Source: Cyanobacteria bacterium P01_F01_bin.150 | Lineage (GTDB): Bacteria > Cyanobacteriota > Cyanobacteriia > CAKZMO01 | Assembly: GCA_039189765.1 (NCBI GenBank) | Contig: JBCCYL010000007.1 | Location: 32,001 to 96,000, forward strand | Reading direction: 5' to 3' | Length of the DNA stretch: 64,000 nucleotides | In this document: positions 15,186 to 48,094 of the stretch, one piece after another | How the letters are laid out: each line of letters starts with the position of its first letter | Numbering within the stretch: the first letter of the stretch is position 1 | Made by a program: the position numbers and the translations under genes | Notes under the pieces: model-generated | The model's database searches: none | What the model was told of the DNA's origin: nothing | What the model saw: the letters and a program-made list of their open reading frames with translations, nothing else

Positions 15186-15197
15186 CGCGATCGCCTC

Positions 15198-17609: not shown

Positions 17610-17877
17610 GAGGCTACAGAAATTATCCTAAAAGAGTGGACCTACTGGGCATAATTCCCAAGAATAGACGTTCATTATTCATGCAATGGCAACCTCGATG
17701 ATTTTCTTAAAGTTTTCACCGCCTAAGAAACACGACGTGTTTTTTTAATTTTGGATGTGTTATGTCGGTGGAGCCTACACATTAAAGGCTCAGTTCTTAA
17801 ATCCGATGGTATTCAACTTCATGCAGCCAAGTGGCTGTTCTAGAATAAAAGTACTTCACCAAATCTTTTAGGACTTC

Positions 17878-18528
17878 TTGGGTAGCATGGCGACAACAGA
17901 TTCTCTATCAGGCAAAACTAATAAGAAAAATTTCTCTAGCTTTTCTAAAAAAGAAGCATTTAAAGCTCTGGATCTGAAGGATCTAACTCAGTGGAATATT
18001 GAAGCACCTCCTCTTGCTCCCAGTCCGTTTCTAAAGGAAAGACTGGCGCGGCTACAGCGTCACTTTGACTTAGACAGTGGGGAAGAAGCGAAAAAGTTAC
18101 TGATCGACGCTCTATGTGATGAAGCCCTGGAATCGTGCGATCGCCTCAAAATCTGGAAATCAGCCAGCCTAGAAGGAGAACACACAAATGGGGTTGCCGA
18201 TTACCTGGTGGCTGAACGAAAACGGTATTTAGAAGCCCCTTTTCTGTGTATTGTTGAAGCCAAAAAAGATGACTTTGAACAGGGTTTAGCCCAATGTTTA
18301 GTGGAAATGAATGCCTGTGCCTGGACTAATCAGCAAGTCGGACAATCCCTCGATATTATTGGCATTGTGACCAATGGAGAGGGATGGAAGTTTTATAAAT
18401 ATGCCCGTGATGGCTCCATTTACGAAACGCTACTGTTTTCCATCAGCAACCTCGGTGATGTACTAGGGGTCTTGCATTTCCTATTCCATCAATGTGAGTC
18501 CCAACTGGTTGCGGCTGAAAATGAATAA
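17878..18528 (+). CDS. PD-(D/E)xK / HsdR-N-like restriction-endonuclease-fold protein; likely start ATG 17887
   Basis: GVADYLV...IVEAKK...GLAQC...GIVTNGEGWKFY. Confidence 0.75.
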   Translation: MGSMATTDSLSGKTNKKNFSSFSKKEAFKALDLKDLTQWNIEAPPLAPSPFLKERLARLQRHFDLDSGEEAKKLLIDALCDEALESCDRLKIWKSASLEGEHTNGVADYLVAERKRYLEAPFLCIVEAKKDDFEQGLAQCLVEMNACAWTNQQVGQSLDIIGIVTNGEGWKFYKYARDGSIYETLLFSISNLGDVLGVLHFLFHQCESQLVAAENE

Positions 18529-18530
18529 GC

Positions 18531-21500
18531 TTAGGGAGCTGTGGGACTTAGCTCAAAGGTTAGGACAGTCTCATCAACTCCTTTGAGTGCAAGGGGTTCA
18601 AACTTGTTGATTTCCTGATCGTCCAAATAGTCTGCAACAGTCGCCGATACCAGAATGCTGCCAGGATTTGCAACAGTCTGAATACGGGACGCAATATTTA
18701 CGCTGGGACCGATGGCCGTATAGTCTGAGCGTTCTTCACCCCCAAACATACCCACCACAGCAGTGCCTTGATGAATACCGCATCTAAATTGAATCGGGGG
18801 AATCCCCTGTGCTTGCCATTTGGCATTAAGCGCTTCCAGGGACACCAGCATCTGGCGGGCAGATGCGATCGCCTGTCGTACCTGCTCATTTGGGCTGATT
18901 TCCTCAGGCGCACCAAAAATTGCTAGGACCGCATCCCCCATAAACTTATCGACAGTGCCACCATTTTCAAACACTGCACGGGTCATCCCTGCCAGGTATT
19001 CGTTTAAGAGGGATGCCACCCGACGCGATCGCAGCGTGTTAGAAATTTGCGTAAATCCAACAATATCGCTAAATAATACCGTCACCAAGCGAGGCTCAGG
19101 CCGTAGATCCAAACTGAGTTCCCCCTGAGCAGCTTTTTGTACCAACGTAGGGGGGAGAAATCGCCTGAGGACAGACTCTGTTAAGTAGGCATTAAGTTTT
19201 GCCACCCTTTTCTCACTCGCTTTTAGCGCCAGTAAGTTTCGTACTTCTGCCAATAGCTCACGGTGATTAAATGGCTTTGAGAGATAGGCATCCGCCCCTT
19301 TTTCTGCCCCCTCAATCCGCGTGTCCTCGTCTGCTTTAGCGGTTACCAAAACAATCGGTGTCCCCTTTACCTGATCCATTTGGCGAATGTGCTGAATCAT
19401 TTCTAGGCCAGACATCTGAGGCATCATCAAGTCAGTCAGAATTAGATTAGGCATCTGATCCTGCACTATCCGCAGCCCCTCTGCCCCGTTACGGGCAGTG
19501 GAGATTTTGTAGCCAGCTCTTTGCAAAATGGAACCAACATATCCTCTCAAATCGGGATTGTCATCTACGATTAAGATATGAGACTCTGAAGGTACTTCAG
19601 TAATGTCCATTGCACTGGGTGCTGTTCCAATAGCTCCAATTGCCGTGCCCTGGGGAGCGGATGTGTATTGACTATCAGAATTTTGGTCTAGACTTGGCAG
19701 TTGTGATGGATAAATGGTCGGCGTTGGCAATGTTGGTAATGCGGCATCAGGTGCAAGCATATCCGATGCGTCGGCATTAATATCCGCTAATTCTACAAAC
19801 GACTGAGTCCGCTCAATGGTTGCCGATACTTCAGATACCTGGTCTGATGGTAAGTGGTCTGAGCCATGGGGCAAGATGATAGTAAACGCCGTTCCTTGAC
19901 CATATACGGATGACACACTAATTTGGCCTCCGTGTAGTTCCACCAGCTCTTTCACCAATGCCAGTCCTAATCCGCTACCTTCATAATTACGATTGGCAGA
20001 TCCATCTGCCTGACGGAATCGATCAAACAGATAGGGAATTTGATCCGCCCGGATGCCAATCCCAGTATCCTGAACCTTTAATGTACAGTGCTCACCTTCC
20101 GATACCAATGTAATATGAATAGAGCCGCCAGATGGCGTAAACTTCATGGCATTGGATAGTAGGTTGTACAAAACCTTGTCAAATTTTTCTACATCCAAAT
20201 ACAAGGGTGGGACATCTGCTAAAGCTGTCATTAAGGTGATGCCCTTCTTCTCACAATAAGATTGGAAGGATTCCACAACTTGCTGAACAAAGTGCTTTAC
20301 TAGACAAGGCGTGAAGGTTGGTTGCATTCGCCCTGCATCTAATCGCTGCAAGTCTAGAAGTTGATTCACCAAACGCAGTAGGCGACGGGAATTTCGGAGA
20401 GCGATTATGGCTTGGTCGTAACTCAAGCCTTCTTTATGTTCAACACAAGCTTCTAAAGGCCCAATATTAAGAGTCAGGGGTGTTCGGAATTCATGGGAAA
20501 TATTCTGGAAAAATTCGGTCTTTTGTCGATCCAACTCTAGGAGTTTTTCAGACTGCTGCAGGGTTGTCTGGAATAAGTTGGATTGCTGCACTGCGATCGC
20601 TGCCTGGGCTGCTACGACTTGAGCCAGATCAATCGCGTCGGCTTCCCAGTGGCGTGGCTCTTTGACCTGACGCAACGAAATACTGCCAATAATAGCTCCA
20701 TCGGACAGCAATGGAACCACCAATAAAGATCGTGCAGGCAGTCGTAAAGGCAAATCTAAGATATTTAATTCAGGGCGACTAGCTAAGTCATCCACAATCA
20801 CAGGAGATTGGGTTTCAAGCAGTTCTTTAAGGACTGGATTTCCCTCAATGGGGACCAATGACTTTGGTAAGGGCGATCGCTCTTTATTATCAGAATAATT
20901 AATCTCCGAACCATTTACATTTACGCTGCTCTCAGACGACTTTTCGGATGCTGTCACAGATGATTCATACAGGCCAACACATTCCACATAAATATCGTCT
21001 TTAGTCCACAGTGACAACGCACAGCCATCTACCTGTAAAGCCTCTCCCAACTGATGGGTGATAGCAGCAAAAATATCCTCCGGGTCTAAACTGGAACGAA
21101 TAGCTGTCGTAATCGTATTGACTAGCGCTTCGCGCTTTGCTAAAGCCCTAACCTGCTCATAGGTCTGAGCTTGGGAAAATGCCAAGGCTGCCTGATTGGC
21201 CACCATCGCAATTAGCTTAATATCATCGTCTTCCCATGTTTGCTCTTGCCCAATATGGTGGAGTGCAAGAACAGCCAATAATTCAGCTTGATAAACAAAG
21301 GGTACAAGGAGACTGGACCGGATATTTAGTGATTGGTAGCCATCTTGCACATGAATTGGAATATCGGCATACGCTAAGCTCTGATCCCTGCCGTTTAATA
21401 AGCGAATACTGCGAACTTCACGGGTAGGCCAAACCATTTGGGACAAGGTTTCGATAAAAGGCGGAGCCTGATCTTTTGTTAAGCAGTCACTCAGCTCAGG

Positions 21501-22142
21501 AGAGAGATAGGTAAACACAGTTTTAGCTAACTGGTCAGCCTGTATTGGTCGCAAAACACAGCAATCCACCTCAAAAATATTACCTACCGTATCCACGATG
21601 GTCTGTAGAATTTCCCCAGAATTCGGTGCCCCTTGAATTGCGCTGTTTACAGTGTTGACCAATGTCTCCTGGCGCAGGTTACTGCGAAGCTCACGAGTTC
21701 TAGCTCGCAATACTAAATGGGTATCTAGGGCTTGTTGCACAACTCCTTTGAGTTCTTCATCATCCCAGGGTTTGGTCACATATTTGAAAACTTGGCCTGC
21801 ATTAATAGCTTCTACCAAGTCTTCAACATCCGTATATCCCGTCAAAATAATCCGAATGATGTCAGGATACTGAGTTGCGGTCAAACTCAAAAACTCCGTC
21901 CCACTCATGGACGGCATTCGTTGATCCGAGATAATGACAGCAATATCATCCTGTTCTTCAAGCAGCGCCAAGGCTTCTGGCCCGCTTTCTGCCTTCAAAA
22001 CCTTGAATTCCCTTCGAAACGTACGATAGAGTAAATCGAGATTGTCTGGTTCATCATCGACAACCAGAATCTTCGGTTTAGGAGGTGTAAGGGTATTTCG
22101 TGAGGATGTCATGCACCGCTCTCCTAATGCGGGGGCTATCAT
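18531..22142 (-). CDS. cyaC: Hybrid adenylate cyclase REC-GAF-GAF-HisKA-HATPase-REC-AC; likely start near 22112
   Basis: ILVVDDE and ISDQRMP receiver, two GAF domains, SHEFRTPL, NLLSNAMKF, GSGLGL, second receiver, cyclase motifs FSDIVGFT, DKFMGD and YTAIGPSVNIASR. Confidence 0.9.
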   Translation of the reverse strand: MIAPALGERCMTSSRNTLTPPKPKILVVDDEPDNLDLLYRTFRREFKVLKAESGPEALALLEEQDDIAVIISDQRMPSMSGTEFLSLTATQYPDIIRIILTGYTDVEDLVEAINAGQVFKYVTKPWDDEELKGVVQQALDTHLVLRARTRELRSNLRQETLVNTVNSAIQGAPNSGEILQTIVDTVGNIFEVDCCVLRPIQADQLAKTVFTYLSPELSDCLTKDQAPPFIETLSQMVWPTREVRSIRLLNGRDQSLAYADIPIHVQDGYQSLNIRSSLLVPFVYQAELLAVLALHHIGQEQTWEDDDIKLIAMVANQAALAFSQAQTYEQVRALAKREALVNTITTAIRSSLDPEDIFAAITHQLGEALQVDGCALSLWTKDDIYVECVGLYESSVTASEKSSESSVNVNGSEINYSDNKERSPLPKSLVPIEGNPVLKELLETQSPVIVDDLASRPELNILDLPLRLPARSLLVVPLLSDGAIIGSISLRQVKEPRHWEADAIDLAQVVAAQAAIAVQQSNLFQTTLQQSEKLLELDRQKTEFFQNISHEFRTPLTLNIGPLEACVEHKEGLSYDQAIIALRNSRRLLRLVNQLLDLQRLDAGRMQPTFTPCLVKHFVQQVVESFQSYCEKKGITLMTALADVPPLYLDVEKFDKVLYNLLSNAMKFTPSGGSIHITLVSEGEHCTLKVQDTGIGIRADQIPYLFDRFRQADGSANRNYEGSGLGLALVKELVELHGGQISVSSVYGQGTAFTIILPHGSDHLPSDQVSEVSATIERTQSFVELADINADASDMLAPDAALPTLPTPTIYPSQLPSLDQNSDSQYTSAPQGTAIGAIGTAPSAMDITEVPSESHILIVDDNPDLRGYVGSILQRAGYKISTARNGAEGLRIVQDQMPNLILTDLMMPQMSGLEMIQHIRQMDQVKGTPIVLVTAKADEDTRIEGAEKGADAYLSKPFNHRELLAEVRNLLALKASEKRVAKLNAYLTESVLRRFLPPTLVQKAAQGELSLDLRPEPRLVTVLFSDIVGFTQISNTLRSRRVASLLNEYLAGMTRAVFENGGTVDKFMGDAVLAIFGAPEEISPNEQVRQAIASARQMLVSLEALNAKWQAQGIPPIQFRCGIHQGTAVVGMFGGEERSDYTAIGPSVNIASRIQTVANPGSILVSATVADYLDDQEINKFEPLALKGVDETVLTFELSPTAP

Positions 22143-23603: not shown

Positions 23604-26390
23604 ATGAAGGACTCACTACATAGCTTGAACAATCGTTCCCCAGATACTCCCCATGAACCTGATATTGAGACGTTTGTTAATCTGCCGTCCAATAAATTGT
23701 TGTCTCCCGATCCCAAATTACTTGAACCTTGTTGTGAAACTCGGGAAGATGCTCAGAGTATGAATCAACAGGTAGCTATGAACTCTAGTCTGTTACCGCA
23801 AGATGTGACAGTGGAGCCTACAGTCCCATATCCTTTCGAATCAGCTGCTCAGAGACATACTGAGCCAACGGTTAAAATTCCAGATAGTGCATCGAATACC
23901 GAAACTAAAAGCCTTGAAGAAACTGGAACTGCTGGGCGATCGCCTTTTCGTTCCACCTATCTTAGCAATCTAAACCTAAGCGGCTTAAGACTGACAAACC
24001 TCAGTCGTTTGCTACTTGACCATAGTCAACTCTTACGGGATGACGGTAAAGGATTAAGTTTGCTGGGGGTTGGCCATGGCATTGTCGCAGGGATTGCTGT
24101 TGTAGCTTCGGGCTTGACGATACTGAATCCTCCCTGGATTCAATCTTTGGAATATGAAGTTCAAGCCTTCTTCTTCCAACATCGGGGAACGATCAGCCCT
24201 CCTCAAGATATTGTGATTTTGGAAATTGATGAAACATCACTAGCTCAAGGAGAATTTTATAGCAGCGATCCTGATAAATATTCTGATCTTGAACTAATTC
24301 AACAGTGGCCTTGGCAGCGGCAAGTCTATGCGATCGCCATTGAGCGAGTGATGGAAGCAGGCGCTAAAGCAGTTGCTTTAGACCTAATTTTGGATCGACC
24401 AAGTGTTTGGGGAGATAAAGATGATGGTTTTCTCCAATATGCTTTAGAGCGCTATCCCGAAAGAATTGTCTTAGCGTCGAGTTTTGACGATAGTGCAAAT
24501 GATACTGGTTCCACCCTTCAGCTTGCACCTCCTCTCGTTCGCTTTTTGGATGCAGGTGGTAGACCAGGGGTTATTAATTATCCGTTTGCTCCCAATGATC
24601 GTATCCATAAGTTCTCTCAAGTCTGGTTACAGGATCAAGCGGATTCTGATATCGCGATGCAAACATACTTAAATGGATTACCGGACTCATTAACTCAAAC
24701 CTTTGTTGAACAGACGGTATTGGCTGCTCAGAACCGTAATATGGTCGAGACGGTCGAGGCTGATCTATCACTAAGGGGAGAACAAATATTTTTCTATGGT
24801 CCAGCAGGCACCTTTGAGCATGAAGCATTTTGGACTATTTTGGATCCGCAAAATTGGGAGGTGCATCAATTCCAAAATACCTTTCGAGACAAAATTGTCT
24901 TGATTGGCCCCACTGCCAAACTCTTTCAAGACTCGCATCGTACGCCCTTTGGGTTCATGTCAGGGATTGAAATTCATGCCAATGCTATTGCCACCTACCT
25001 CAATAATCGATCGATTACAGAGGCGTTGCCTAATCCTTATCTCAAGGCAGGATTGGTTTTAGGGCTAACTATATTGACTGGATTAGGGGCTAGTTATCCT
25101 CGCCGCACATCGTATCGTATGTTGATTACTCTTGCCGGAGTGAGTGCTTGGACTGTCTTCAGTTATGTTTCTTGGGTTGCAGGACGCTTGGCCTTACCAA
25201 CCGCTGTACCTTTGGGTGCCATTACCCTTGGGGGGGCTGGGTATGTTACGACTGGGTTACTCCAAGAAAAACTGCGCAAACTGAAATTACGTAGTGCATT
25301 GAAACAATATGTCAGCTCCCCTATTGTTCAAGACATCATTAACCAGCAGGATGATCTCCATGATTTAATTTCTGAGGAAGAGAAAGAGACCATCGGCAAG
25401 ATTTTAGATGGGCGATACAAAATTATAGAGATCTTGGCCTCGGGAGGTTTTGGCCAAACGTTTATTGCCCAAGATTTAAGACGTCCGGGTCAACCACGCT
25501 GCGTTGTTAAGCAACTCCGGCCAGTTAGTAATGATCCCCGAGTTTTTCATCTCTCAAGACGGTTGTTTAATAAAGAAGCTGAAACCCTTGAGCGACTCAA
25601 TCATAATCAGATACCTCAGCTTTTGGCTTATTTTGAAGAGGCCCAAGGCTTTTACTTAGTGCAAGAACTGGTTGAAGGGCACCCGCTACGCTACGAACTA
25701 TTGCCTAAGCCAAGTTCAGAATTAAATGTCATCCTTATTTTGAAAGAACTTCTAGAAATTCTTGTCTTTATCCATGATATGAGAGTGATTCATCGTGACA
25801 TTAAACCTAGCAACATTATCCGTCGTCACTCCGATCAGCGGTTAGTCCTCATTGATTTCGGAGCCGTTAAAGAAATTCAGGCAACCGCACCAGGTGAAGA
25901 AGGAGAACCAGACAAAACAGTTTCTATTGGTACTCGTGGTTATATCTCGAATGAACAGTTAGCAGGGAATCCACGATTTAACAGTGATATTTACGCGGTT
26001 GGTGTAATTGGGATACAGGCTAGTACAGGATTATCGCCTGATAAGTTGGTCGATGATGCGGAAACTGGAGAACTCGTCTGGCAGCCATTTTCTGACCATA
26101 GTGAGGCGCTCAAAGAAATTATTGATAAGATGGTCCGATATGATTTCAGTAAACGATATCAGTCAGCTCAAGATGTTCTAGAGGACTTGCAGCCGTTGTT
26201 AGATATGCACATTACAGATGATGAAGGAGCAGTCTCAGCATCTCTGCCAGCATACACAATATTAAAGTCTCACCACAGAACTGAGTTTGGTGATGAGACC
26301 ATTGAACTTACAGATGGCGATTTAGATGCTACAGTTCCTTGGCCGACGGGAGTGAAAGAAGATCTGATTGATGACGCCACAAACTCCTAA
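23604..26390 (+). CDS. CHASE2-domain Ser/Thr protein kinase
   Basis: CHASE2 motifs (WPWQR, VALDL, KIVLIG, GIEIHA), TM helices, kinase motifs SGGFG, VVKQL, HRDIKPSN, DFG and SDIYAVG. Confidence 0.93.
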   Translation: MKDSLHSLNNRSPDTPHEPDIETFVNLPSNKLLSPDPKLLEPCCETREDAQSMNQQVAMNSSLLPQDVTVEPTVPYPFESAAQRHTEPTVKIPDSASNTETKSLEETGTAGRSPFRSTYLSNLNLSGLRLTNLSRLLLDHSQLLRDDGKGLSLLGVGHGIVAGIAVVASGLTILNPPWIQSLEYEVQAFFFQHRGTISPPQDIVILEIDETSLAQGEFYSSDPDKYSDLELIQQWPWQRQVYAIAIERVMEAGAKAVALDLILDRPSVWGDKDDGFLQYALERYPERIVLASSFDDSANDTGSTLQLAPPLVRFLDAGGRPGVINYPFAPNDRIHKFSQVWLQDQADSDIAMQTYLNGLPDSLTQTFVEQTVLAAQNRNMVETVEADLSLRGEQIFFYGPAGTFEHEAFWTILDPQNWEVHQFQNTFRDKIVLIGPTAKLFQDSHRTPFGFMSGIEIHANAIATYLNNRSITEALPNPYLKAGLVLGLTILTGLGASYPRRTSYRMLITLAGVSAWTVFSYVSWVAGRLALPTAVPLGAITLGGAGYVTTGLLQEKLRKLKLRSALKQYVSSPIVQDIINQQDDLHDLISEEEKETIGKILDGRYKIIEILASGGFGQTFIAQDLRRPGQPRCVVKQLRPVSNDPRVFHLSRRLFNKEAETLERLNHNQIPQLLAYFEEAQGFYLVQELVEGHPLRYELLPKPSSELNVILILKELLEILVFIHDMRVIHRDIKPSNIIRRHSDQRLVLIDFGAVKEIQATAPGEEGEPDKTVSIGTRGYISNEQLAGNPRFNSDIYAVGVIGIQASTGLSPDKLVDDAETGELVWQPFSDHSEALKEIIDKMVRYDFSKRYQSAQDVLEDLQPLLDMHITDDEGAVSASLPAYTILKSHHRTEFGDETIELTDGDLDATVPWPTGVKEDLIDDATNS

Positions 26391-26908
26391 AGAAGGTGTA
26401 CATCTTGGATAAAGTTCAAGAGGATAGCTTGGTGAGGAGTTCCAATGGGGCAGATTTTCTGGGCCAGCTTTGAATAGGCTTCTCCGTTGCGAATATCGCT
26501 ATAACTCAAAAAATCCATATCCCATCCTTCATTGAGGATTAACGTGGACAGATCAGCCTTTAGCGGCGCATGATAAACATGACGAATTACAGGAGAGTCA
26601 GTAGTTGCAATGGTGTCGGTGTATGAGCGATACAACTTTAAGTTAGGAGGAACAAAATTAATTTCTTCTAAGAGTTCACGGCTGATGCCATCATCAGGTG
26701 TTTCCCCCGGCTCCAAATGGCCGCCGAAAAAAGCCCAATGGCCAGGATAACGAATTGTTGGAATGTCATCTCGAAGCTGCATAAGGAAACGCCCAGGTTG
26801 GTGGAGAATGGCGATCGCCACCTCAATTTTAGAATGCGCTCCAAAAAAGGGCTGTATCTGCATCACAATGAGTCCACATGCTTGAGAATTACTTGAGACA
26901 GGACTCAA
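26387..26908 (-). CDS. NUDIX hydrolase; likely start near 26863
   Basis: QLRDD...PGHW and the Nudix box GGHLEPGETPDDGISRELLEEI. Confidence 0.9.
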   Translation of the reverse strand: MSPVSSNSQACGLIVMQIQPFFGAHSKIEVAIAILHQPGRFLMQLRDDIPTIRYPGHWAFFGGHLEPGETPDDGISRELLEEINFVPPNLKLYRSYTDTIATTDSPVIRHVYHAPLKADLSTLILNEGWDMDFLSYSDIRNGEAYSKLAQKICPIGTPHQAILLNFIQDVHLL

Positions 26909-27054
26909 ATCATAAAATAAATTGGTTCCAACGTGGAAATCGTAACGTCCTCCCAGTTTGGCTCAGGTAATTGTATCGACGGAAAATTCCCAAAATGTTC
27001 AGAAAAGTCGCCAGATAGTCCGGATTCTCAATCGTCTTCCTAGGAGATAGGAAT

Positions 27055-27104
27055 GGTAGATGCACCCTGATTCGACCCCGTTAGGATTTTCCTTTCGGGG
27101 TTTT
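27055..27104 (+). ncRNA. nsiR1: NsiR1-like sRNA copy 1 (most divergent)
   Basis: TCCGGA at 27019, N18, GGAGA; core; ACCCCG...CGGGGT hairpin and T-run. Confidence 0.7.
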
Positions 27105-27213
27105 CTCTTAGATTTAAATATTCCGTTAGTTTAGAAATTGATAATAGCTGAGATTTATAAAAAAATATATATAAAAGTCCGGATCTTATTAATTTATGAA
27201 GGTAGACAGGAAT

Positions 27214-27262
27214 GGTAGATGCACCCTGATTCAACCCTGAAAGATTTATTCTTTTGGGGTTT
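27214..27262 (+). ncRNA. nsiR1: NsiR1-like sRNA copy 2
   Basis: TCCGGA at 27178, N18, GTAGA; core; ACCCTGAAAGA/TCTTTTGGGGT hairpin. Confidence 0.75.
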
Positions 27263-27592
27263 CCTTATGCTTACTGCCGTAATCTATGAGTGAGCATTTA
27301 GATTTATTGACTGGGCAATTAGAAATTAATTTATTTTATGAAACTTATAGCTATGAATTATTCCAAAATGTGATTATGGAAATATATTTTATTTTTTGAA
27401 TATTTGTATTTTGCGTAAATTTGCTGATGCTCATTTATTTATTGATAATATATTGAAGCTTTTTTGTTGTTAGCTAGTGAACTCATTTGATTTTCGGATA
27501 TTTTTATCGAGCTTTAAAACTTTTTGATGGAAAGAACTATTGTTATATTCAAAATATCCGGATATTGAATTCCTCTATGAGTAACTAGGAAT

Positions 27593-27643
27593 GGTAGATG
27601 CACCCTGATTCAACCCTGAAGAAATTTATCCCTTCGGGGTTTT
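27593..27643 (+). ncRNA. nsiR1: NsiR1-like sRNA copy 3
   Basis: TCCGGA at 27557, N18, GTAAC; core; ACCCTGAAG/CTTCGGGGT hairpin. Confidence 0.75.
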
Positions 27644-27757
27644 CTTGTTTTTTATAATTTTATTAAGGTGATAATTTAAGTTCGTTATAAATATATAGGT
27701 CTTTATTTTTATAGCTAAACTATCCGGAGATCAATATTATTGTAGGTAAGTAGATAT

Positions 27758-27808
27758 GGTAGATGCACCCTGATTCAACCCTGAAAGAATTTATTCCTTC
27801 GGGGTTTT
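27758..27808 (+). ncRNA. nsiR1: NsiR1-like sRNA copy 4
   Basis: TCCGGA at 27723, N17, GTAAG; core; hairpin and T-run. Confidence 0.75.
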
Positions 27809-27920
27809 CTCATTTCTCTATTGATTTAGAGTTTCAAGTGCTTTAATCTATCTTTGAAAGGATTTTAAATTTACGAACAAACTGTCCGGAATATAGATGT
27901 ATTTATAGGTAACCAGATAT

Positions 27921-27971
27921 GGTAGATGCACCCTGATTCAACCCTGAGAGGATTTATTCTTTCAGGGTTTT
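27921..27971 (+). ncRNA. nsiR1: NsiR1-like sRNA copy 5
   Basis: TCCGGA at 27885, N18, GTAAC; core; ACCCTGAGAGGA/TCTTTCAGGGT hairpin. Confidence 0.75.
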
Positions 27972-28074
27972 CTTGACTTTATTCGTTAATTTATAAAATA
28001 TTTAAATACTTTTTTGTTTGATTTCTATGATTAAAATTTCCGGAGTTTAACTATTTCTGCGAGTAAGTAGAAAT

Positions 28075-28125
28075 GGTAGATGCACCCTGATTCAACCCTG
28101 AGAGGATTTATTCTTTCAGGGTTTT
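28075..28125 (+). ncRNA. nsiR1: NsiR1-like sRNA copy 6 (transcribed part identical to copy 5)
   Basis: TCCGGA at 28039, N18, GTAAG; core; same hairpin as copy 5. Confidence 0.75.
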
Positions 28126-28237
28126 CTTGTTCTTAGCCTGCCACTTAGTAAGATTGGAATACCTTCTAAATATCTGCTTATTTATCTTTTCAGCTAAACT
28201 ATCCGGACTTTGAATACTCTTATGAGTAAGTAAAAAT

Positions 28238-28287
28238 GGTAGATGCACCCTGATTCAACCTCGAAAGAATTTATTCTTTCGGGGTTT
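28238..28287 (+). ncRNA. nsiR1: NsiR1-like sRNA copy 7
   Basis: TCCGGA at 28202, N18, GTAAG; core; ACCTCGAAAGAAT/ATTCTTTCGGGGT hairpin. Confidence 0.75.
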
Positions 28288-28632
28288 CCTGTTTCTACAG
28301 GAAAAATGACATAACTTACGTAACTCGAATGCCAATTTTAGGCTGGTAGTGTAGGGGCGTCGCCTTCGCTCTATCTGTGGTTTTGTGTCAGATTAAAGCG
28401 AAACCCCACAACTTAGACTTATTAACGATGAGAACCCAAAGCATTTTGCTGTCGATAAAATCGGTCTTCAGCCTAAAGATATGTACAAAGATATCGCTTT
28501 GTACTAAATCCGTAACGGATAAGGGCAAAAGAATCCATTGACCAACAGGACACGATAAAATCCGGAAAGGATGAATTGGTGACGAATAATGCCATTCAAC
28601 CGAAACTCTTCAATTAATTCGGGGGAAAGCCT

Positions 28633-29091
28633 GTGACTGCTATTTTATCGAATGAAGCTGATGTAACAACTGAACATTATGTTGTCTTGGGCCTGGCGAA
28701 CTGCTTTATTAAAGAAGATGGTGAGGTTCATCCAGTCAAAGTGTTGGAACCCATTCCATCAGCGGCATTGGAAGCCTTGATAAAGGGTATCCCCACATCC
28801 TATAGTTTGGCTTATGCTACTCAAATTGGAGCCATCCTCTCTGACGAAGCCCCCACAATGCCCAGTGTTTTTCCGAAAGATGTGCAGCTATGTGATGATT
28901 TTGCAAGCCGAGCAATCGCTGCTGCACGCACTTACCACTCCCGTCCTGAGGCACAAACTCACATTCCGCTGAATACGACCTACGAAACTTTCAACACGTC
29001 TTTAGATCGGAAGCGCGTATTAAATTCAGAAAACATCGTTAGAACAGAAGATAACGTTAAACAGCACTCATATACACATCAAGTTCTTTAA
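28633..29091 (+). CDS. Conserved cyanobacterial hypothetical protein
   Basis: 152-aa ORF with a GTG start after a purine-rich tract; protein-like composition; 5 nt from the GST ORF. Confidence 0.75.
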   Translation: MTAILSNEADVTTEHYVVLGLANCFIKEDGEVHPVKVLEPIPSAALEALIKGIPTSYSLAYATQIGAILSDEAPTMPSVFPKDVQLCDDFASRAIAAARTYHSRPEAQTHIPLNTTYETFNTSLDRKRVLNSENIVRTEDNVKQHSYTHQVL

Positions 29092-29096
29092 TTAAT

Positions 29097-29666
29097 TTGT
29101 CTAAATTTATGACTCTCAAACTTTACGGTGGTACCCGTACTCGCGCCTCTATTATTAAGTGGTACCTCGAAGAAAAAAATATTCCCTACGATTTTGTTCT
29201 GCTGGACTTACGAGCTGGGGAACATCAAACATCGGAGTTTTTAGCGATTAACCCGATGGGGAAAGTCCCCGCCATTGTGGATGAGGATGTGACTTGTTGG
29301 GAGTCTGGTGCGATTTTACTTTATTTGGCAGACCATTATGCTCCGACTCCTCTAAGTGCCGCTCACCGTGCGGCTTTAGGGCAGTGGGTAATGTTTGCCA
29401 ATGCAACGCTGGGACCAGGCTTGTTTATTGAAAGTAACAGGGAGAGGGAAGGCGATCGCCTCCTTTCTTCTTTAAACAGCGTTCTGGAAAAATCTGAATA
29501 TTTGGTTGATGATGACCTAAGTGCGGCAGATATTGCCGTTGGGGCCTACTTAGCGTACGCCACTATGATGGTCAAACTCACCTATGAGAACTATGGGGCG
29601 ATCGCCACCTATGTGACTAATCTCACTCAGCGCCCTGCCTTCAAGTCCACCATCGGTGCTCGTTGA
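29097..29666 (+). CDS. Glutathione S-transferase family protein; likely start ATG 29109
   Basis: INPMGKVPAI, WESGAILLYLA and SAADI. Confidence 0.92.
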   Translation: MSKFMTLKLYGGTRTRASIIKWYLEEKNIPYDFVLLDLRAGEHQTSEFLAINPMGKVPAIVDEDVTCWESGAILLYLADHYAPTPLSAAHRAALGQWVMFANATLGPGLFIESNREREGDRLLSSLNSVLEKSEYLVDDDLSAADIAVGAYLAYATMMVKLTYENYGAIATYVTNLTQRPAFKSTIGAR

Positions 29667-29772
29667 ATTCTTGCATCGCTTTCGGATGTTAATTTTAGGC
29701 GAATAATGGGGCCTCGTACCTTCATTGACGTTGACTGGGGTTTGTCTGAGAGCAGAACCCCGTTTTTCTTAG

Positions 29773-32700
29773 CTAGAGGCAATTAGAAACAGGCGCTAAG
29801 CTCAAAGATCTGTTGGCGGTCAACTGGATTGAACCATCCGAAGCCACAGTAAATTCTGTAGCTTCTTGAGGATGGGCGTGGATTTTCATGGCAGAGTGAT
29901 TAGTGGGAGGGGCAGAAGAGACTGTTGCGCTCTCAATGGTCTCAGGAATAGTTCCAAAATCAGGAAAAATGTGATACCAGGAGCGATCGCTGTTTCCATC
30001 TGGCTCTGTAGATAACCCACCCTGTCCGATTATGACAAAGTAACTTCCTTGGGCTACGTTACAGGATGTCGAAATAGCTTGAGTCACATCAGTAATGGTG
30101 GTGGGCAGGATGACTGCCGCACTGCTTGGGTCAATGTCGGGAGTTGTAATCTGGACAGTCCCGCTAATTCCTGATTGTGAGCTAGCTGTAATATCGTTCC
30201 CATCTGTCAATCTATCTCTGACGGCTAAGTTAAATAATCCCTCTGTTGTAATTTGAATATTGCCTCCATCTCCATCAAAGGCATTGGCGACAATATCGCT
30301 ATTGCCAGTTGCAGCCAAAAACGGTGATGTAATTGTAATGTTGCCACCATTGCCACCATCTCCCTGCCCTGTACCTGCTTGGGTAGAAATGGCCCCTTCT
30401 CCTCCCCTGTCGGCTAAAATCAAACCCCGATCAATATCGAGAGTGATATTACCGCCACCGCTTTGTTCGCTAAGAGCCGTTATGGCTCCGTTATCTAAAA
30501 TTAGAGTACCGATATCCATTGTTACGTTGCCCGCTCTGGCTTCCTGAGGGAATGACGAGGCTGTAGAAACTGAAGGCGATCTGGATTGAGATCGCGATCG
30601 CCTATTGCTGAATAAACCATCAAAGTTGATTGTGTCTGCACTAGCGGAGACTTCTGCTCCATTTTGAATTAGGAGTAGAGGAGCTGTGACCATAATGTCG
30701 CCGCCTAACCCACTAGCCTCTATTTCAGTCTCTGACGAGAGTAATCGTTGTGCGCCTGCTGATAACCCACTAGCGAATAAACCATCCGAAGGAGAGCGAC
30801 CATCTAATAAAACTTGACCAGATGCTTGAACGGTCAGATTCCCCGCATTCCCCTCACCAAAGGTAGCGGATAAAAACTGCCCTCCGTCTCGAAAGCCTAG
30901 AGTGTTAGTCTCAATCTCGATGTTTCCGGCTGTACCCCTACCAAATGTTGATGTCGTCAATACGGAACCAATAACCTCAATATCTGTTGCTACAACATCA
31001 ATATTTCCCCCAGTACCATCTTTAAAAGCTGAGCTAGCGATAATCCCGCCATTCTGTAAGTGAAGCTGTTCAGAGGTGATTTGAATTTGTCCCGCTTGCC
31101 CTTCTTCTAAGGCAAACGTGCCGATGCCTTGGGTGAAATTATCAGGGCTAAAGGTATTGGTAAACGCAGGCAAAATAGCATTTTGGCGTAAATCTTCACT
31201 GCCCGTACCCATAATATTGATGTCTATGGCTTGAATGTTAATATTGCCTCCATTCCCAGACGTTGTCGTAGAGGCGTTGATTAAGCCATTGTCTAAGATC
31301 AAGTTATGGGTATCAAGGTTAATATCGCCACCGCTGCCTGTGATGGTTGTGGCTGCAATTGTCCCCTGATTTACAAGCTCAGTTGTATTAGTTTCAATCT
31401 CCAGTTCTCCTGAGTCTCCAGAACCCTCCACAATCAAAGATATAGCCGCCTGATCTGAGATTTTTAAGTTGGGAGTTGTAATTGAAATATCGCCAGCATT
31501 CCCCTCCAGACTGTCGTCTAAGCCTAAAACTTGCCGACTCGTGTCATCAACAACAGTCACTTCAGAGCTAATCCGACTCCGAGTCAAGTCATCTGCAAAA
31601 GGGTTAGGAATAGCCCCTCTAACTAAGATTCGCTCTGATGCATGAATATCAAGACTACCCGCATTACCATCACTGATACTCGACGAGTCGATAATATTGC
31701 CATCCAGAATCTCTAATAATCGCGTGTTTATCTCAACAGTTCCGGCATTCCCAGACCCTAGAGTGGCCGAAGAGATTCCAGAGCCACTTAATTGATTGTT
31801 ATTGCCTGTAAGGCGAATGGAATCAGCCTGAATTGAAATATTTCCGCTATTCCCTTGCCCAATTAGGGTAGAAGAGGCAATCACTGCGCCATCTTTTACT
31901 ATCAAATTGCCTGTTTGAAGGTCGATATTTCCGGCATTTCCTCTTCCCCCAATGGCTGTCGCACGAATGGTGCTGACCTCTGTGCCAATTGGCGAGACTA
32001 AAAAAGGATAAACCCCAGCGACTTGAAGCTTATTTTTAGCCCAAATTTCAATGTCCCCCCCTTGCCCAGAGTTAAACGTGGAGGTGTTAATCCGGCCTCC
32101 ATTTCTGACCCGTAATGCTGGTGTCGTAATAAAAATATTACCTGCGGCGCCTTCACCAAGCGTCTCTGCTGCTAGTAACGTCCGAAACTGTGCCTGTGTG
32201 GTCAGGCCATTTACCAGTATTGAATCGTGGGCCTGAACAATAATATTTCCTCCTGGATTGTGACCAGTCTGACTTAGGATTGCTGAGCCACGGTTTAGGG
32301 AAAGCCTGTTTGCTTCAATACCGACTGAACCGGCTTGGGAAGCACTGACATCTACCAAGGCAAGATTAGACAGTTGGATGTCATTAAACAAAGTGCCTTC
32401 ATAGTTAAAGTGCCAGGGAACTGAATTTTGGGTGGTATCGGCAACTATTTCAATTCTGCCTTGAGCTACGCTGCCTAACTCAATGCTCCCACCAGGCGCT
32501 GTGAGAACTGCTCCATCAAGCTGAATGGTGTTACCAATAAAGGCTAAAGATTGACCAGATGATACTTCTAGGCCAAGACTATCGCTGGCATTATTGGATA
32601 TGGGAAACAAGTCACTGATTTGATTCAGTTGATGACCGGGGCCTTGAATTTCAACTGCACCTGAAGACTGGCCGAGCTGTAATCCAATGGGAGTCTTAAT

Positions 32701-33210
32701 GGAGAGTAAGGGCGATGACTGGAGGTCGGAAATACTAAATTCTAGTTGATTATCGAATAATAAGCGATCAGCCGTAGTTGCTAGAAACGAACCACCAATA
32801 TCTAAACGGGCATTGGGGCCAAACAGAAAACCATTAGGATTAAGCAAGAAAAGATTAGCATTCCCGTTGGCTTTAATTAACCCGTCAATATTAGAAATCT
32901 CACTGCCGGTAATGCGGCTAATAATGTTCTGAATATCTATTGCATTGTTGAAGTATACTGAGCTATCAGTAGGAATCGAAAACTGATCAAAGCTGTGAAA
33001 TAGATTGATTCCTGCTTGATCGCCTTGCTCAATTACAAAATTGAAGTTATCGATTGAGCGAACAGTAGTGGAAAGAGTTCCGTCATGGGTAACTTGGGCT
33101 AATGCTTGATGTTGCCCTTGAATACTAAAGTTGACCAACAGAAAGAGGCCTAAAGTATTAATTATTTTTATCCATGGGTGGTAAATAAAGCTGTTTTCAA
33201 CACTGACCAT
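29773..33210 (-). CDS. Filamentous haemagglutinin N-terminal-domain exoprotein
   Basis: Signal peptide ALAQ, NLFHSF, LFLLNPNG, GxxGxIxI repeats and C-terminal GQGGL. Confidence 0.9.
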   Translation of the reverse strand: MVSVENSFIYHPWIKIINTLGLFLLVNFSIQGQHQALAQVTHDGTLSTTVRSIDNFNFVIEQGDQAGINLFHSFDQFSIPTDSSVYFNNAIDIQNIISRITGSEISNIDGLIKANGNANLFLLNPNGFLFGPNARLDIGGSFLATTADRLLFDNQLEFSISDLQSSPLLSIKTPIGLQLGQSSGAVEIQGPGHQLNQISDLFPISNNASDSLGLEVSSGQSLAFIGNTIQLDGAVLTAPGGSIELGSVAQGRIEIVADTTQNSVPWHFNYEGTLFNDIQLSNLALVDVSASQAGSVGIEANRLSLNRGSAILSQTGHNPGGNIIVQAHDSILVNGLTTQAQFRTLLAAETLGEGAAGNIFITTPALRVRNGGRINTSTFNSGQGGDIEIWAKNKLQVAGVYPFLVSPIGTEVSTIRATAIGGRGNAGNIDLQTGNLIVKDGAVIASSTLIGQGNSGNISIQADSIRLTGNNNQLSGSGISSATLGSGNAGTVEINTRLLEILDGNIIDSSSISDGNAGSLDIHASERILVRGAIPNPFADDLTRSRISSEVTVVDDTSRQVLGLDDSLEGNAGDISITTPNLKISDQAAISLIVEGSGDSGELEIETNTTELVNQGTIAATTITGSGGDINLDTHNLILDNGLINASTTTSGNGGNINIQAIDINIMGTGSEDLRQNAILPAFTNTFSPDNFTQGIGTFALEEGQAGQIQITSEQLHLQNGGIIASSAFKDGTGGNIDVVATDIEVIGSVLTTSTFGRGTAGNIEIETNTLGFRDGGQFLSATFGEGNAGNLTVQASGQVLLDGRSPSDGLFASGLSAGAQRLLSSETEIEASGLGGDIMVTAPLLLIQNGAEVSASADTINFDGLFSNRRSRSQSRSPSVSTASSFPQEARAGNVTMDIGTLILDNGAITALSEQSGGGNITLDIDRGLILADRGGEGAISTQAGTGQGDGGNGGNITITSPFLAATGNSDIVANAFDGDGGNIQITTEGLFNLAVRDRLTDGNDITASSQSGISGTVQITTPDIDPSSAAVILPTTITDVTQAISTSCNVAQGSYFVIIGQGGLSTEPDGNSDRSWYHIFPDFGTIPETIESATVSSAPPTNHSAMKIHAHPQEATEFTVASDGSIQLTANRSLSLAPVSNCL

Positions 33211-33400
33211 CAGTATCCAAAAAATGTTTTGTTCGCCTATGTTTTAATGCGGTATTGAGTGATAGGGGCAAAGTGTCTCATATTGTCATTAAAATTTTCC
33301 AGACTTTGGCTATGGGCATAAACCTTTTCATTTCCTTAATGTTCCCAATGCTGAAAGAACTTACTATGCCTATTTACGAAGATTCGTATGATGAGGACTA

Positions 33401-36067
33401 TCATTTTAGAGTAGAGTGTAGAGACGGGTCACAGTTTGACTCGATTGAGTTGATGATCGGATTTGTACCCGAGATTAATTGAATCTTGCCTGAGGATGCG
33501 ATCGCCATTTGGGAGGCCTCTTGAGGCAATAGGGGAGTTAGAAAGGCCGTGGAAGTTTGGAAAACACCAGGAGCAGGAGCATCGGCAATAGAATTCGGTA
33601 TGGTGCCGAAATCAGGAAGAATATTTGGCCAGGGGCGATCGCCATCGCCATCAGGATTGGTCGGCAACCCACCTTGGCCGGTAACCACAAATTGACTGCG
33701 GCTAGTCGACTCACCACATGCTGTGGCAACTTGATCGGTGGCATCGTTCACTGTTGAGGGCAACAAAATAGCATCTGCACCAGGATCAACATCTGGTGTT
33801 GTAATGCTAACAGTACCGCTTACACCAAATTCTGAACTAGCGGTGATATCGTTGTTGGACGTTAAACTATCTCGAAACGCAATATTGAATAAACCTTGAG
33901 TAGTGATTTGAATGCTGCCGCCATTGCCAGTAAATGCATTGGCCTCAATATCACTATTGCCAGCAGCAACAATAAATGGAGCTTCAATTTGGATATTTCC
34001 CCCATCTCCACCACCGCTATCTACTGTTCCGGCCCGAGTTGAAATAGTACTCATATTGGATAAAAAAAGTCCATCATCAACCGTCAGATTAACGCCTCCA
34101 CCCCTACCAGACGAGAGAGAGGATGCGTTGATTCGGCCATTATTTAAACGTAGAATGTGAGCATTAATAGTTATACTACCTCCACTGACGGTATTCGTTG
34201 TTGCAGTGATCGCGCCCTGGTTCTCTAAGGCTACTCTTTCGGCAGAAATGTTTAATTGTCCCGGATTGCCGTCACCAGATACATTATTGATGGTTACAAC
34301 GCCACTATCAGCAATACGCAAATAAGGAGTGTCAATGGTAAGATTGCCCACATCGCCCGCTGGAATCGGTGATAAGTCCAAAATTTGCCGAATCGAGTCA
34401 TTGAGAGTGATGACGGCAGAACTAATGGCACTAACCTGAACGTTACCTTCACTATTTCTGAGTCTAAACCCTTGCACAACAACTTGTTCAGATGCACTGA
34501 TTTTTAAATCTCCAGCATGCCCAAGGCTTGCACTTGCAGAGTCCACAATGTTGCCATCTAAGACAACCAACTCGCGAGTATTGATCCTAATATCTCCTGC
34601 ATTGCCGTCACTTAAGGTACTAGAAAAAATTCCAGCACCTCCAATTTCAATTTGGTGAGTCGTTCCCTCTAAACGAATGGAGTCAGCCTCAATAAGAATA
34701 TCCCCTCCTGTTCCTTCTCCAGCTAGAGTAGATGAACTGATAATGCCCCCGCCTCTAACCCTAACGATTGGACTATTAATGTCAATATCCCCTGCATTGC
34801 CTAAACCGCCAATGGTGGTGGCTCCAATGACACTAACATCCGTCCCACTCTTGGCAATAGGAGATATTCCCTCTACGTGAAGGGCCTCTTCTGCTCGAAT
34901 ATGAATACTGCCTGAATCACCACCATCAAACGTCGTCGATCTAATTGCTCCTCCATTTTTAAGCCTCACTAAGGGACTTTGAATATCGATGAGGCTTCCT
35001 TGGCCACTACCTAAAACTTCTGCCCGAATTGAACTGCGAAAATTACTTGAATTGACCCCACGAATGATAAGAGACTCGTCGGCATAAACTTGGATAAATC
35101 CAGCTAGAGCATTGCCTGCATTTTGGCTAAGTAGAGTAGAACCTCCGCTCAAACGAATTTGATCGCCTTGTAAAGACATCGAACCAGCCTGATTTGCGCT
35201 GCTATCTAAAAGGGCATTACGAATCAACTGAATGTTATCGAAAGAGGCCCCGTCATAGGAAAAGACCCAATTACCATTATTGTCGTCGAATTTGATAATG
35301 CCGTCCCGAGCGCTACCGAGTTCAATATGTCCCCCTGCCGTCGTTAATACGGCTCCATTCAGCGTTAAAGAACTACCAAGCAACGCTAAATTTTGAGAAG
35401 AAGATACTTCAAGGCCCAATGATTCGGAGGAATGATTGGTCGTTTGGAGAAGGTCGTTACCTTGCATAAGCTGGTGTCCTGAACCCAGCACTTCGATAGA
35501 ACCGGGTTCAGCCCCCATTTGTAAGCCCAAAGGGATATTAATCGATAGTAATCTTTCTGCTTGACTTGCACTAAAAGTAATATCATCTTCAAATAAAAAA
35601 CTGTCGGCAGTGGTTACCAAAAATGAACCACCAATATTTAAGCGAGCATTAGGGCCAAAAATAAAACCATTGGGATTGAGCAAGAAAAGACTGGCAGTGC
35701 CATTAGCTTGAATTAAACCATCAATATCAGATAGACCTGAACCAGTAACTCTAGTAATGATGTTTTCAATGGCGATCGCATTACTAAATTGGGCAGAACC
35801 ATTAGTGGGAATTGAAAACTGCTCAAAACTATGAAAGAGATTACGATTGACACGATTACCTGCATCAATCACAAAGTTGAGATTATCTGTGGTGGTTACA
35901 GTGGTAGCCAGAGTTCCATCTGGGGTTACTTGCGCATAGACAGCAGGTTGCAAAATAAAGCCCCACATTAGAGTAGCAGCACCTATGGAAACGATATCTG
36001 CTGCGCATTGGCATGTTGACATCACTCTTTGCATCCTCCAAAGAATGGTCATTCCAGAAGTGGGCAT
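33401..36067 (-). CDS. Filamentous haemagglutinin N-terminal-domain exoprotein (paralog of 29773..33210; start uncertain)
   Basis: VYAQVTPDGTL, NLFHSF, LFLLNPNG and C-terminal GQGGLP/PDFGTIP. Confidence 0.9.
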   Translation of the reverse strand: MPTSGMTILWRMQRVMSTCQCAADIVSIGAATLMWGFILQPAVYAQVTPDGTLATTVTTTDNLNFVIDAGNRVNRNLFHSFEQFSIPTNGSAQFSNAIAIENIITRVTGSGLSDIDGLIQANGTASLFLLNPNGFIFGPNARLNIGGSFLVTTADSFLFEDDITFSASQAERLLSINIPLGLQMGAEPGSIEVLGSGHQLMQGNDLLQTTNHSSESLGLEVSSSQNLALLGSSLTLNGAVLTTAGGHIELGSARDGIIKFDDNNGNWVFSYDGASFDNIQLIRNALLDSSANQAGSMSLQGDQIRLSGGSTLLSQNAGNALAGFIQVYADESLIIRGVNSSNFRSSIRAEVLGSGQGSLIDIQSPLVRLKNGGAIRSTTFDGGDSGSIHIRAEEALHVEGISPIAKSGTDVSVIGATTIGGLGNAGDIDINSPIVRVRGGGIISSSTLAGEGTGGDILIEADSIRLEGTTHQIEIGGAGIFSSTLSDGNAGDIRINTRELVVLDGNIVDSASASLGHAGDLKISASEQVVVQGFRLRNSEGNVQVSAISSAVITLNDSIRQILDLSPIPAGDVGNLTIDTPYLRIADSGVVTINNVSGDGNPGQLNISAERVALENQGAITATTNTVSGGSITINAHILRLNNGRINASSLSSGRGGGVNLTVDDGLFLSNMSTISTRAGTVDSGGGDGGNIQIEAPFIVAAGNSDIEANAFTGNGGSIQITTQGLFNIAFRDSLTSNNDITASSEFGVSGTVSITTPDVDPGADAILLPSTVNDATDQVATACGESTSRSQFVVTGQGGLPTNPDGDGDRPWPNILPDFGTIPNSIADAPAPGVFQTSTAFLTPLLPQEASQMAIASSGKIQLISGTNPIINSIESNCDPSLHSTLK

Positions 36068-47988: not shown

Positions 47989-48015
47989 TGCTTACCCTCT
48001 ATAGTTTCGTCGGGT

Positions 48016-48094
48016 GTAGGGTGGGCAAAGGACGTTAGGACGTGCTCACCAAAGCCAATTTCTGATTGGCCCCCGTTCGTTTTGCCCATCCTAC
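48016..48094 (+). repeat. REP-like palindromic element, copy 2
   Basis: Terminal inverted repeat GTAGGGTGGGCAAA...TTTGCCCATCCTAC. Confidence 0.75.

Follow-up and report, generated by a model that had tools for sequence, protein, structure and literature searches.

A seven-copy array of NsiR1-family small-RNA genes with DIF1-type promoters in a cyanobacterium that is very probably not a heterocyst-former

The 64,000-nucleotide stretch analysed here (hereafter the window), taken from contig JBCCYL010000007.1 of Cyanobacteria bacterium P01_F01_bin.150, carries an array of seven units which, as judged from their sequence, are small-RNA genes of the NsiR1 family, each one a complete promoter-RNA-terminator unit. 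The literature associates NsiR1 with heterocystous strains (PMC4030482, PMC6596454, PMC9045159, PMC4734099, PMC11797042). Its induction is described as dependent on NtcA and HetR and as specific to developing heterocysts, and in Nostoc it has been described as an antisense repressor of hetF and a trans repressor of alr3234 (PMC9045159). The host of the window is very probably not a heterocyst-former, an assignment that rests on the best hits of three proteins and not on a tree. The interpretation we favour, to which we would give a probability of about 70%, is that of an NsiR1 array outside the Nostocales with HetR/HetZ-type transcription, a burst of RNA from multiple copies and pairing in trans to hetF and/or hetP-like mRNAs. 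Nearly all of the doubt in this proposal concerns the regulation and the targets, not the identity of the RNA as NsiR1.

The array spans positions 27019-28292 of the plus strand (Table 1) and is most easily recognised by a 21-mer, ATGGTAGATGCACCCTGATTC, which is found in seven exact copies (0 mismatches, whole window) within 1.27 kb, all on the plus strand, at positions 27053, 27212, 27591, 27756, 27919, 28073 and 28236. No further copy occurs elsewhere in the 64 kb, and 100 dinucleotide-preserving shuffles yielded zero matches. A repeat finder returned an 87-nt unit present seven times, with spacings of 159, 379, 165, 163, 154 and 163 bp. The intergenic stretch that holds the array (26909-28632; 1,724 bp) has a GC content of 0.25-0.37 (0.45 for the window) and a longest open reading frame (ORF) of 64 amino acids (aa). 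When the seven units are aligned, no variation is seen in the hexamer TCCGGA, the G and the A of the -10 element, the 21-mer, and portions of a hairpin and its T-run; the sequence following the terminator and the linkers have diverged. In this regard, the preliminary description of this DNA, which was made from the letters alone, had seen an AT-rich stretch of about 1.7 kb without credible ORF, seven units at these spacings sharing one invariant 21-mer, and a conservation confined to promoter, 21-mer and hairpin with T-run among differing linkers, and all of this was reproduced by the exact search, the repeat finder and the alignment. A decayed eighth unit within the 379-bp interval was considered and rejected, as this linker showed no Rfam match at E<=1 and its local alignments against four unit periods scored 38-48, with shuffle means of 36-48.

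A scan of the whole window with Rfam 15 at gathering thresholds identified the seven units, and nothing else, as NsiR1 (RF02399; 60-nt model, cut-off of 39 bits). All seven exceeded the gathering score, with 44.8-49.9 bits over model positions 1-60, and a permissive scan of 26800-28700 gave no additional match. The NsiR1-like identity initially proposed was thus borne out by the covariance model for every unit, and the length of about 50 nt suggested for the RNAs came close, the Rfam envelope giving somewhat longer molecules of 55-57 nt when the U-rich tail is included. The conserved NsiR1 5' block, UGGUAGAUGCACCCUGAU, is identical in the seven units, and the invariant 5' block of the RNA of about 55 nt, UGGUAGAUGCACCCUGAUUC, is predicted to form a 3-bp hairpin with a single-stranded stretch after it. 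The predicted folds (-14.9 to -18.9 kcal/mol) share a two-hairpin architecture in all seven RNAs, where a 5' mini-hairpin of the GGU/ACC type is followed by the single-stranded stretch and by a terminator hairpin of the Rho-independent type with 10-13 pairs. RNAalifold reported 16 consensus pairs, several of which are kept through one-sided changes and two through two-sided changes.

Upstream of every RNA, the alignment shows the hexamer TCCGGA, a spacer of 17 nt (16 in unit 4), a -10 element of the form (A/G)G(T/G)A, 8 nt and the triplet TGG, so that the distance from the start of TCCGGA to the T of TGGTAG is 35 nt, except in unit 4, where it is 34 nt. The -10 variants are AGTA and GGTA (three units each) and AGGA (one unit), with the G and the A invariant; a strict TGnA pattern is found in none of the seven units and a relaxed nGnA in all of them. 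Across the window TCCGGA is no more frequent than expected from base composition (11 sites versus 12.4), and 8 of the 11 sites fall inside 27019-28561. Recent work describes HetZ as the sigma factor that reads DIF1 promoters, with a consensus TCCGGA-N16-17-TGnA-N7-9-T (PMC13342950, 2026), and in the same work T-13 of the patS promoter could be replaced fully by A and partly by G or C. Each unit of the array reads as bearing a DIF1/sigma-HetZ-type promoter, with a predicted RNA start at or beside the T of TGGTAG, and the assignment of a DIF1 promoter to each copy in the preliminary description is upheld at the level of sequence by seven exact hexamers. These promoters resemble those of the Anabaena patS, patX, hetR, sigC and hep genes in having TCCGGA at -35, a spacer of 16-17 nt and a -10 whose G and A do not vary (PMC13342950, PMC11298460). 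Unlike them, they drive a non-coding RNA seven times in succession. In Anabaena itself, a 3,151-bp HetZ chromatin-immunoprecipitation peak (WT_HetZ_peak_832) spans nsiR1(1-12) and is lowered in the hetZ4-201 mutant (PMC13342950, Dataset S2).

The cyanobacterial origin of the window is attested by a phycobilisome protein, the HpsA, HpsB and HpsC proteins and 54 HIP1-type octamers, and its finer placement by the nearest named relatives of three proteins. For AccA these were Merismopedia sp. SIO2A8 (92% identity; title of a metagenome-assembled genome, MAG), Leptolyngbyaceae (89%), Synechococcales (87%), Elainellaceae (85%) and, at about 81-83%, Trichocoleus, Oculatellaceae, Elainella and Leptolyngbya. 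An ABC-F ATPase was closest to Cyanothece sp. SIO2G6 (again a MAG title) and a Leptolyngbyaceae genome (both 82%), followed by Elainellaceae (75%), and a 152-aa protein encoded beside the array was closest to SIO2A8 (74%) and then to Leptolyngbyaceae, Kovacikia and Phormidium. No Nostocales genus appeared in the named rows of the best 120 for any of the three, many rows being nameless. Since heterocyst-formers constitute a single clade, the Nostocales (PMC11298460), as is also well established, and the best hits of the host lie outside it, the host would be a Leptolyngbya-like cyanobacterium outside the Nostocales and very probably one that forms no heterocysts, in agreement with the non-heterocystous host supposed at the outset. 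The RNAs themselves support this placement. After the 18-nt core of NsiR1 those of the window read TCAA or TCGA, whereas AACT follows in 84 of 88 units of Nostocales-named loci among the matches listed. Synteny added little to the placement, as a blastn of the window against the loci fetched from other genomes (at least 125; see below) gave 7 short matches of 69-77% identity, and tblastn with the kinase, NUDIX, 152-aa, glutathione S-transferase and GNAT proteins revealed no syntenic locus; close relatives of the host are probably not among the matches listed. The window also contains, at 42928-50721 (+), the hormogonium polysaccharide genes hpsA, hpsB and hpsC together with another pseudopilin, which point to a motile filamentous lifestyle.

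How far NsiR1 extends beyond the Nostocales was surveyed by scanning genome contigs with the 18-nt core. The scan, which is a sample and not a census and was sorted by record title, returned at least 125 loci, including at least 25 named for Nostocales, at least 66 named for taxa outside this order, at least 33 from cyanobacterial MAGs without taxon name and, among the matches listed, one from a 'Clostridia' MAG. The last one (L014:10001-10018) lacks both the promoter and the terminator and seems fortuitous; by an arithmetic estimate, about 17 random 18-mer matches would be expected in 596 Gb, both strands considered. The non-Nostocales carriers include Leptolyngbyaceae, Elainellaceae, Oculatellaceae, Phormidesmis, Microcoleus, Symploca and Spirulina, as well as Geitlerinema, Coleofasciculaceae, Microseira, Hormoscilla, Oscillatoria and Chamaesiphon. 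A tally of the promoters, which left out the Clostridia locus and the duplicates from the same-contig overlaps L045/46, L048/49, L058/59 and L065/66, found, among the matches listed, nGnA together with a correctly spaced hexamer no more than one mismatch away from TCCGGA in 128 of 130 non-Nostocales or unnamed units and in 85 of 86 Nostocales-named ones. The exact TCCGGA accounts for 80 of those 130 units, TCCTGA for 33 and TCCGGG for 9. Rfam confirmed the family in each of 20 loci taken from 45 short ones (16 non-Nostocales-named, 4 unnamed), with 27 hits above gathering at 41.1-67.5 bits, and gave 46 NsiR1 hits in nine long non-Nostocales loci picked for having at least two core matches. Those 46 are distributed over Microcoleus vaginatus GB1-A2 (L046, 11 hits), Microcoleus sp. 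D2_18a_B4 (L079, 10), Symploca sp. SIO2C1 (L020, 7), Microseira wollei NIES-4236 (L048, at least 5, at a contig end), a MAG (L074, 4), a Leptolyngbyaceae MAG (L006, 3), and Leptothoe (L035), a Leptolyngbales MAG (L018) and Stenomitos (L027), with 2 each. A tblastn search found no hetF in the fetched flanks of L046, L079, L020, L048 and L074. The uniqueness implied by the preliminary description was therefore not sustained: NsiR1 with the same type of promoter is widespread in non-heterocystous genomes, hetF-unlinked arrays of 7-11 copies included, and the seven-copy array of the window is one case of this pattern.

On the other hand, linkage to hetF is not exclusive to the Nostocales, since hetF lies adjacent to and divergent from NsiR1 in 12 of 65 flanked loci not named for Nostocales (among the matches listed). 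Two of the 12, L028 and L047, carry Nostocales-type RNAs, and their hosts may in fact be Nostocales. Several assemblies have two NsiR1 loci, in some cases one linked to hetF and the other unlinked (L073 with L089, L030 with L056). A subtilase with Peptidase_S8 and DUF5942 domains recurs in 4 of 107 neighbour proteins (L013, L046, L050 and L079; at L050 alongside HetF), and a NUDIX domain appears once among the 107, in a MutY-type protein; neighbours are otherwise varied across the non-Nostocales loci. Two departures from the common pattern were also seen. The unicellular Chamaesiphon has a single NsiR1-type gene (L015:10001, L031:10001) with TCCCGA replacing TCCGGA, which indicates that the RNA is not strictly tied to filamentous forms. 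In L104, L112, L113 and L124, the 18-nt core comes with TCCTGA and continues into GTTTCCT and a longer, different 3' part; to judge by these features, this subgroup may be a divergent sister family.

The gene next to the array on its 5' side encodes a NUDIX hydrolase, and on its 3' side lie the genes of the 152-aa protein and of a glutathione S-transferase (GST), flanks which the preliminary description had named correctly according to Pfam and NCBIfam scans. It had also noted the lack of an adjacent hetF. The HetF query, an 841-aa protein of locus L002 that scores 1,469.9 bits on NCBIfam NF045509, gave no tblastn match anywhere in the 64-kb window at E<=1e-3, whereas it matched 23 of 80 flank-bearing loci; a CHAT domain was likewise absent from the 33 window ORFs scanned. 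In the fetched Nostocales loci the HetF gene occupies the left, divergent position beside NsiR1, and the NUDIX gene of the window has this same position and orientation. In Anabaena, nsiR1 is transcribed opposite to hetF and a hetF start site at -256 maps within nsiR1.2 (PMC8406250). The NUDIX gene offers a possible parallel, as transcription from a sigma-70-like site on the minus strand (27192-27164), in the interval separating units 1 and 2, would produce a NUDIX mRNA with a 5' untranslated region (UTR) antisense to unit 1, mirroring Anabaena hetF and nsiR1.1. By analogy with hetF, unit 1 might then regulate the NUDIX gene by antisense pairing to this UTR. The 6 promoter-like sites in the array region are no excess over shuffles (7.7 +/- 3.0). 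The 152-aa protein has 1,852 homologues at E<=0.001, every named one annotated as hypothetical, and GST is probably co-transcribed with its gene across a 5-bp gap. Just upstream, a candidate eighth DIF1-type promoter was observed at 28561-28596 (+), of the form TCCGGA-N16-CGAA-N8-T, ending about 38 nt before the GTG of the 152-aa gene. Apart from the hexamers of the seven units, no other TCCGGA occurs within 14 kb, and the site conforms to the relaxed pattern TCCGGA-N16/17-nGnA-N7-9-T. The 152-aa and GST genes may form a protein-coding operon under the same type of promoter as the RNA array.

The array can be compared with three kinds of known or newly found systems. It shares with that of Nostoc/Anabaena sp. 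PCC 7120 the UGGUAGAUGCACCCUGAU 5' block, a TCCGGA promoter at equal distance and a terminator for each copy (PMC9045159, PMC8406250), as well as tandem copies divergent from the gene on the 5' side. It differs in having seven copies instead of 12, in its divergent NUDIX neighbour where the PCC 7120 array lies upstream of hetF, in an RNA that reads UCAACCC past the core and not AACUxxCUCCCC, in being 3-5 nt shorter than the 60-nt model with a U-tail weaker than that of PCC 7120 NsiR1, and in a host outside the Nostocales. The Microcoleus, Symploca and Microseira arrays are likewise multi-copy, with DIF1-type promoters and no hetF in the fetched flanks, but their RNA 3' halves differ from those of the window, and so do the flanking genes, which encode a short-chain dehydrogenase and the Peptidase_S8+DUF5942 subtilase in Microcoleus and a methyltransferase and an M24 peptidase in Symploca. 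Full-text searches found no literature on these arrays, although earlier surveys or the Rfam species list may record non-Nostocales hits. The third precedent is RNA162 of Limnospira indica PCC 8005, an NsiR1-like RNA of 57 nt, the same length as in the window, from a filamentous host that forms no heterocysts, and linked to the hetR-patS locus of the genus (PMC8400943). Unlike the array of the window, RNA162 was described as a single gene, from a radiation transcriptome, where its level changed under gamma irradiation (PMC8400943), and neither an array nor a promoter motif nor linkage to hetF is mentioned where it is discussed. Both hetR and hetZ-patU are present in non-heterocystous Leptolyngbya sp. 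BL0902, where a DIF1 promoter is predicted ahead of patX-hetR, small RNAs going unmentioned where that paper deals with these genes (PMC11298460), and a Trichodesmium transcriptome paper mentions neither TCCGGA nor NsiR1.

These comparisons suggest how the array could work. A HetR to HetZ circuit, kept by many non-heterocystous filamentous cyanobacteria, would fire all units together, and a single RNA species would be produced in a strong burst from the multiple copies. The conserved 5' region of this RNA would then base-pair with its targets, which by analogy with Nostoc would be the hetF 5' UTR and hetP-like mRNA, and since hetF is not nearby, the targets in the host of the window would be reached in trans. 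More than 100 genomes share the 18-nt block letter for letter, which speaks in favour of a partner that is itself conserved. The first candidate for it is hetF, whose linkage to NsiR1 is found again outside the Nostocales. Such a system would predate heterocysts and, in the lineage of the host, would serve a HetR/HetZ-controlled response other than heterocyst formation.

Several observations weigh against this proposal. No hetZ, hetR, patU, hetF or hetP-like gene was found within the 64-kb window (Pfam and NCBIfam scans, tblastn for HetF), and nsiR1(1-12) expression is recorded as 'up', not down, in the Anabaena hetZ4-201 mutant (PMC13342950, Dataset S2), which a model of simple sigma-HetZ activation of NsiR1 does not account for even in Anabaena. 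The -10 element of the window opens with A or G, unlike the DIF1 promoters compared above and their consensus T. Regarding targets, RNAduplex pairing of the 24-nt 5' block with the translation-initiation regions of the window (n=36) reached -19.1 kcal/mol at best, within the background (mean -14.2, 5th percentile -19.7). The Rfam scores of the RNAs lie at the low end of the 41.1-67.5 bits seen in other non-Nostocales loci, their U-tracts are short and C-interrupted (UUUUCU, UUUCCU), and a simple scan recovered full-length terminator stems in only two of the seven units, plus one partial. Finally, both the morphology of the host and its lack of heterocysts derive from best-hit taxonomy.

The strongest competing explanation, which we consider distinctly less probable, is that the NsiR1 RNAs are expressed in a rewired manner, under an alternative sigma factor, either a HetZ paralogue or a different one, in response to a non-nitrogen cue (hormogonium formation, desiccation or general stress) and on targets unrelated to hetF or hetP. 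The absence of hetF from the window and the variable neighbours of the non-Nostocales loci fit this idea, as do the gamma-irradiation response of the Limnospira RNA (PMC8400943), the existence of a HetZ' paralogue (PMC13342950) and the variation of the -35 hexamer outside the Nostocales. Yet Nostoc and the host of the window share an unchanged 18-nt 5' block and the same promoter geometry, as would be expected if the partner of the RNA and the polymerase holoenzyme were both conserved, and hetF is still adjacent and divergent in the 12 non-Nostocales-named loci mentioned above. That the array is instead a silent relic of an ancestral system, functionless in this host, is improbable. The weak U-tracts and the low Rfam scores could be taken as signs of it, but decay would be expected in a relic, and what is seen are seven exact TCCGGA hexamers, an invariant -10 G and A in every unit, an identical 21-mer amid diverged linkers, and hairpins maintained through one- and two-sided substitutions. 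Still less credible is a host that really is a heterocyst-former, with the array as an ordinary secondary NsiR1 locus. Nostoc sp. FACHB-280 (L019) has three units and no hetF within 10 kb, so an unlinked array can occur in the Nostocales too, but the best named hits of the three proteins are non-Nostocales at 74-92% identity and the post-core RNA is not of the Nostocales type. Finally, the tandem, AT-rich and non-coding character of the region might suggest another repeated element (of MITE or REP type, or an array of protein-binding sites) rather than RNA genes, a notion made most implausible by the full-length match of all seven units to a curated covariance model, by the lack of copies elsewhere in the 64 kb and by conservation that is restricted, as in a transcription unit, to the promoter, the 5' block of the RNA and the terminator.

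Other features of the window lie apart from the array. In the region 12027-18528, a 1,052-aa SNF2 helicase matches PADLOC DrmD (DISARM) over its full length (1,026 bits) and is adjoined by an 803-aa coiled-coil protein with weak JetC/LmuB-like matches and a 216-aa PD-(D/E)xK nuclease; by these matches the region may represent a defence island that is incomplete or of a variant type. Next to it, at 18531-22142 (-), is a 1,203-aa CyaC-type cyclase with two GAF domains, a histidine kinase, two receivers and an adenylate/guanylate cyclase domain. Three large TPS-domain proteins (two-partner-secretion type), two CHASE2 sensors and one DUF928 protein are encoded in 567-7095 and 23604-36067.

Table 1. 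The seven NsiR1 units, the long linker and the flanking genes, in positions of the window; promoters are read from the sequence and fold energies are predicted.
Feature	Position	Strand	Promoter	NsiR1 RNA	Rfam (bits)	Fold (kcal/mol)	Remarks
Unit 1	27019..27108	+	TCCGGA (27019-27024), 17-nt spacer, AGGA, 8 nt	27054-27108	44.8	-18.8	terminator hairpin
Unit 2	27178..27268	+	TCCGGA, 17-nt spacer, GGTA, 8 nt	27213-27268	48.4	-15.9	
AT-rich long linker	27269..27556						accounts for the 379-bp spacing
Unit 3	27557..27648	+	TCCGGA, 17-nt spacer, AGTA, 8 nt	27592-27648	45.7	-14.9	
Unit 4	27723..27813	+	TCCGGA, 16-nt spacer, GGTA, 8 nt	27757-27813	48.0	-15.7	
Unit 5	27885..27976	+	TCCGGA, 17-nt spacer, GGTA, 8 nt	27920-27976	47.3	-18.9	
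Unit 6	28039..28130	+	TCCGGA, 17-nt spacer, AGTA, 8 nt	28074-28130	49.9	-18.9	terminator-like site 28094-28123
Unit 7	28202..28292	+	TCCGGA, 17-nt spacer, AGTA, 8 nt	28237-28292	47.3	-17.8	terminator-like site 28257-28286
NUDIX hydrolase gene	26387..26908	-					Pfam PF00293, 5.6e-13; NCBIfam Nudix/MutT weak, below cut-off; start TTG 26908 or first ATG 26863; divergent from the array
152-aa conserved cyanobacterial hypothetical	28633..29091	+					GTG start; no Pfam or NCBIfam family
Glutathione S-transferase	29097..29666	+					Pfam GST_N 1.2e-18, GST_C 7.6e-06

The NsiR1 family, the DIF1 promoter class and one remark on Limnospira (PMC8400943) were already known, and the array of the window adds a class of hosts in which NsiR1 would not be expected from the literature. 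Similar arrays being common in genomes outside the heterocyst-forming group, the NsiR1 system probably has a longer history and a wider reach than the role in heterocysts that textbooks give it. The same RNA and the same specialised promoter occur in many lineages that lack heterocysts, often in multiple copies and often detached from hetF, and a practical consequence for annotation is that an Rfam hit to NsiR1 is not evidence for the genome of a heterocyst-former. A more ambitious version of the proposal, which we put forward tentatively and regard as rather doubtful, would make NsiR1 and the sigma-HetZ/DIF1 promoter a module ancestral in filamentous cyanobacteria and older than heterocysts, its arrays firing, in non-heterocystous filaments like the host of the window, in a HetR/HetZ-dependent subset of cells that is possibly patterned in space, and acting in trans on the mRNA of hetF, which encodes a cell-division protein, or on hetP-like mRNAs. 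If true, a fusion to the nsiR1 promoter would expose a hidden differentiation of cell states in organisms thought to have none. The role of hetR, hetZ and patX in non-heterocystous filaments has been called 'a mystery' (PMC11298460), and a strongly conserved, multi-copy target of this circuit would offer a direct handle on it, in the form of a promoter ready for reporter fusions and of a short RNA amenable to target prediction by genome comparison.

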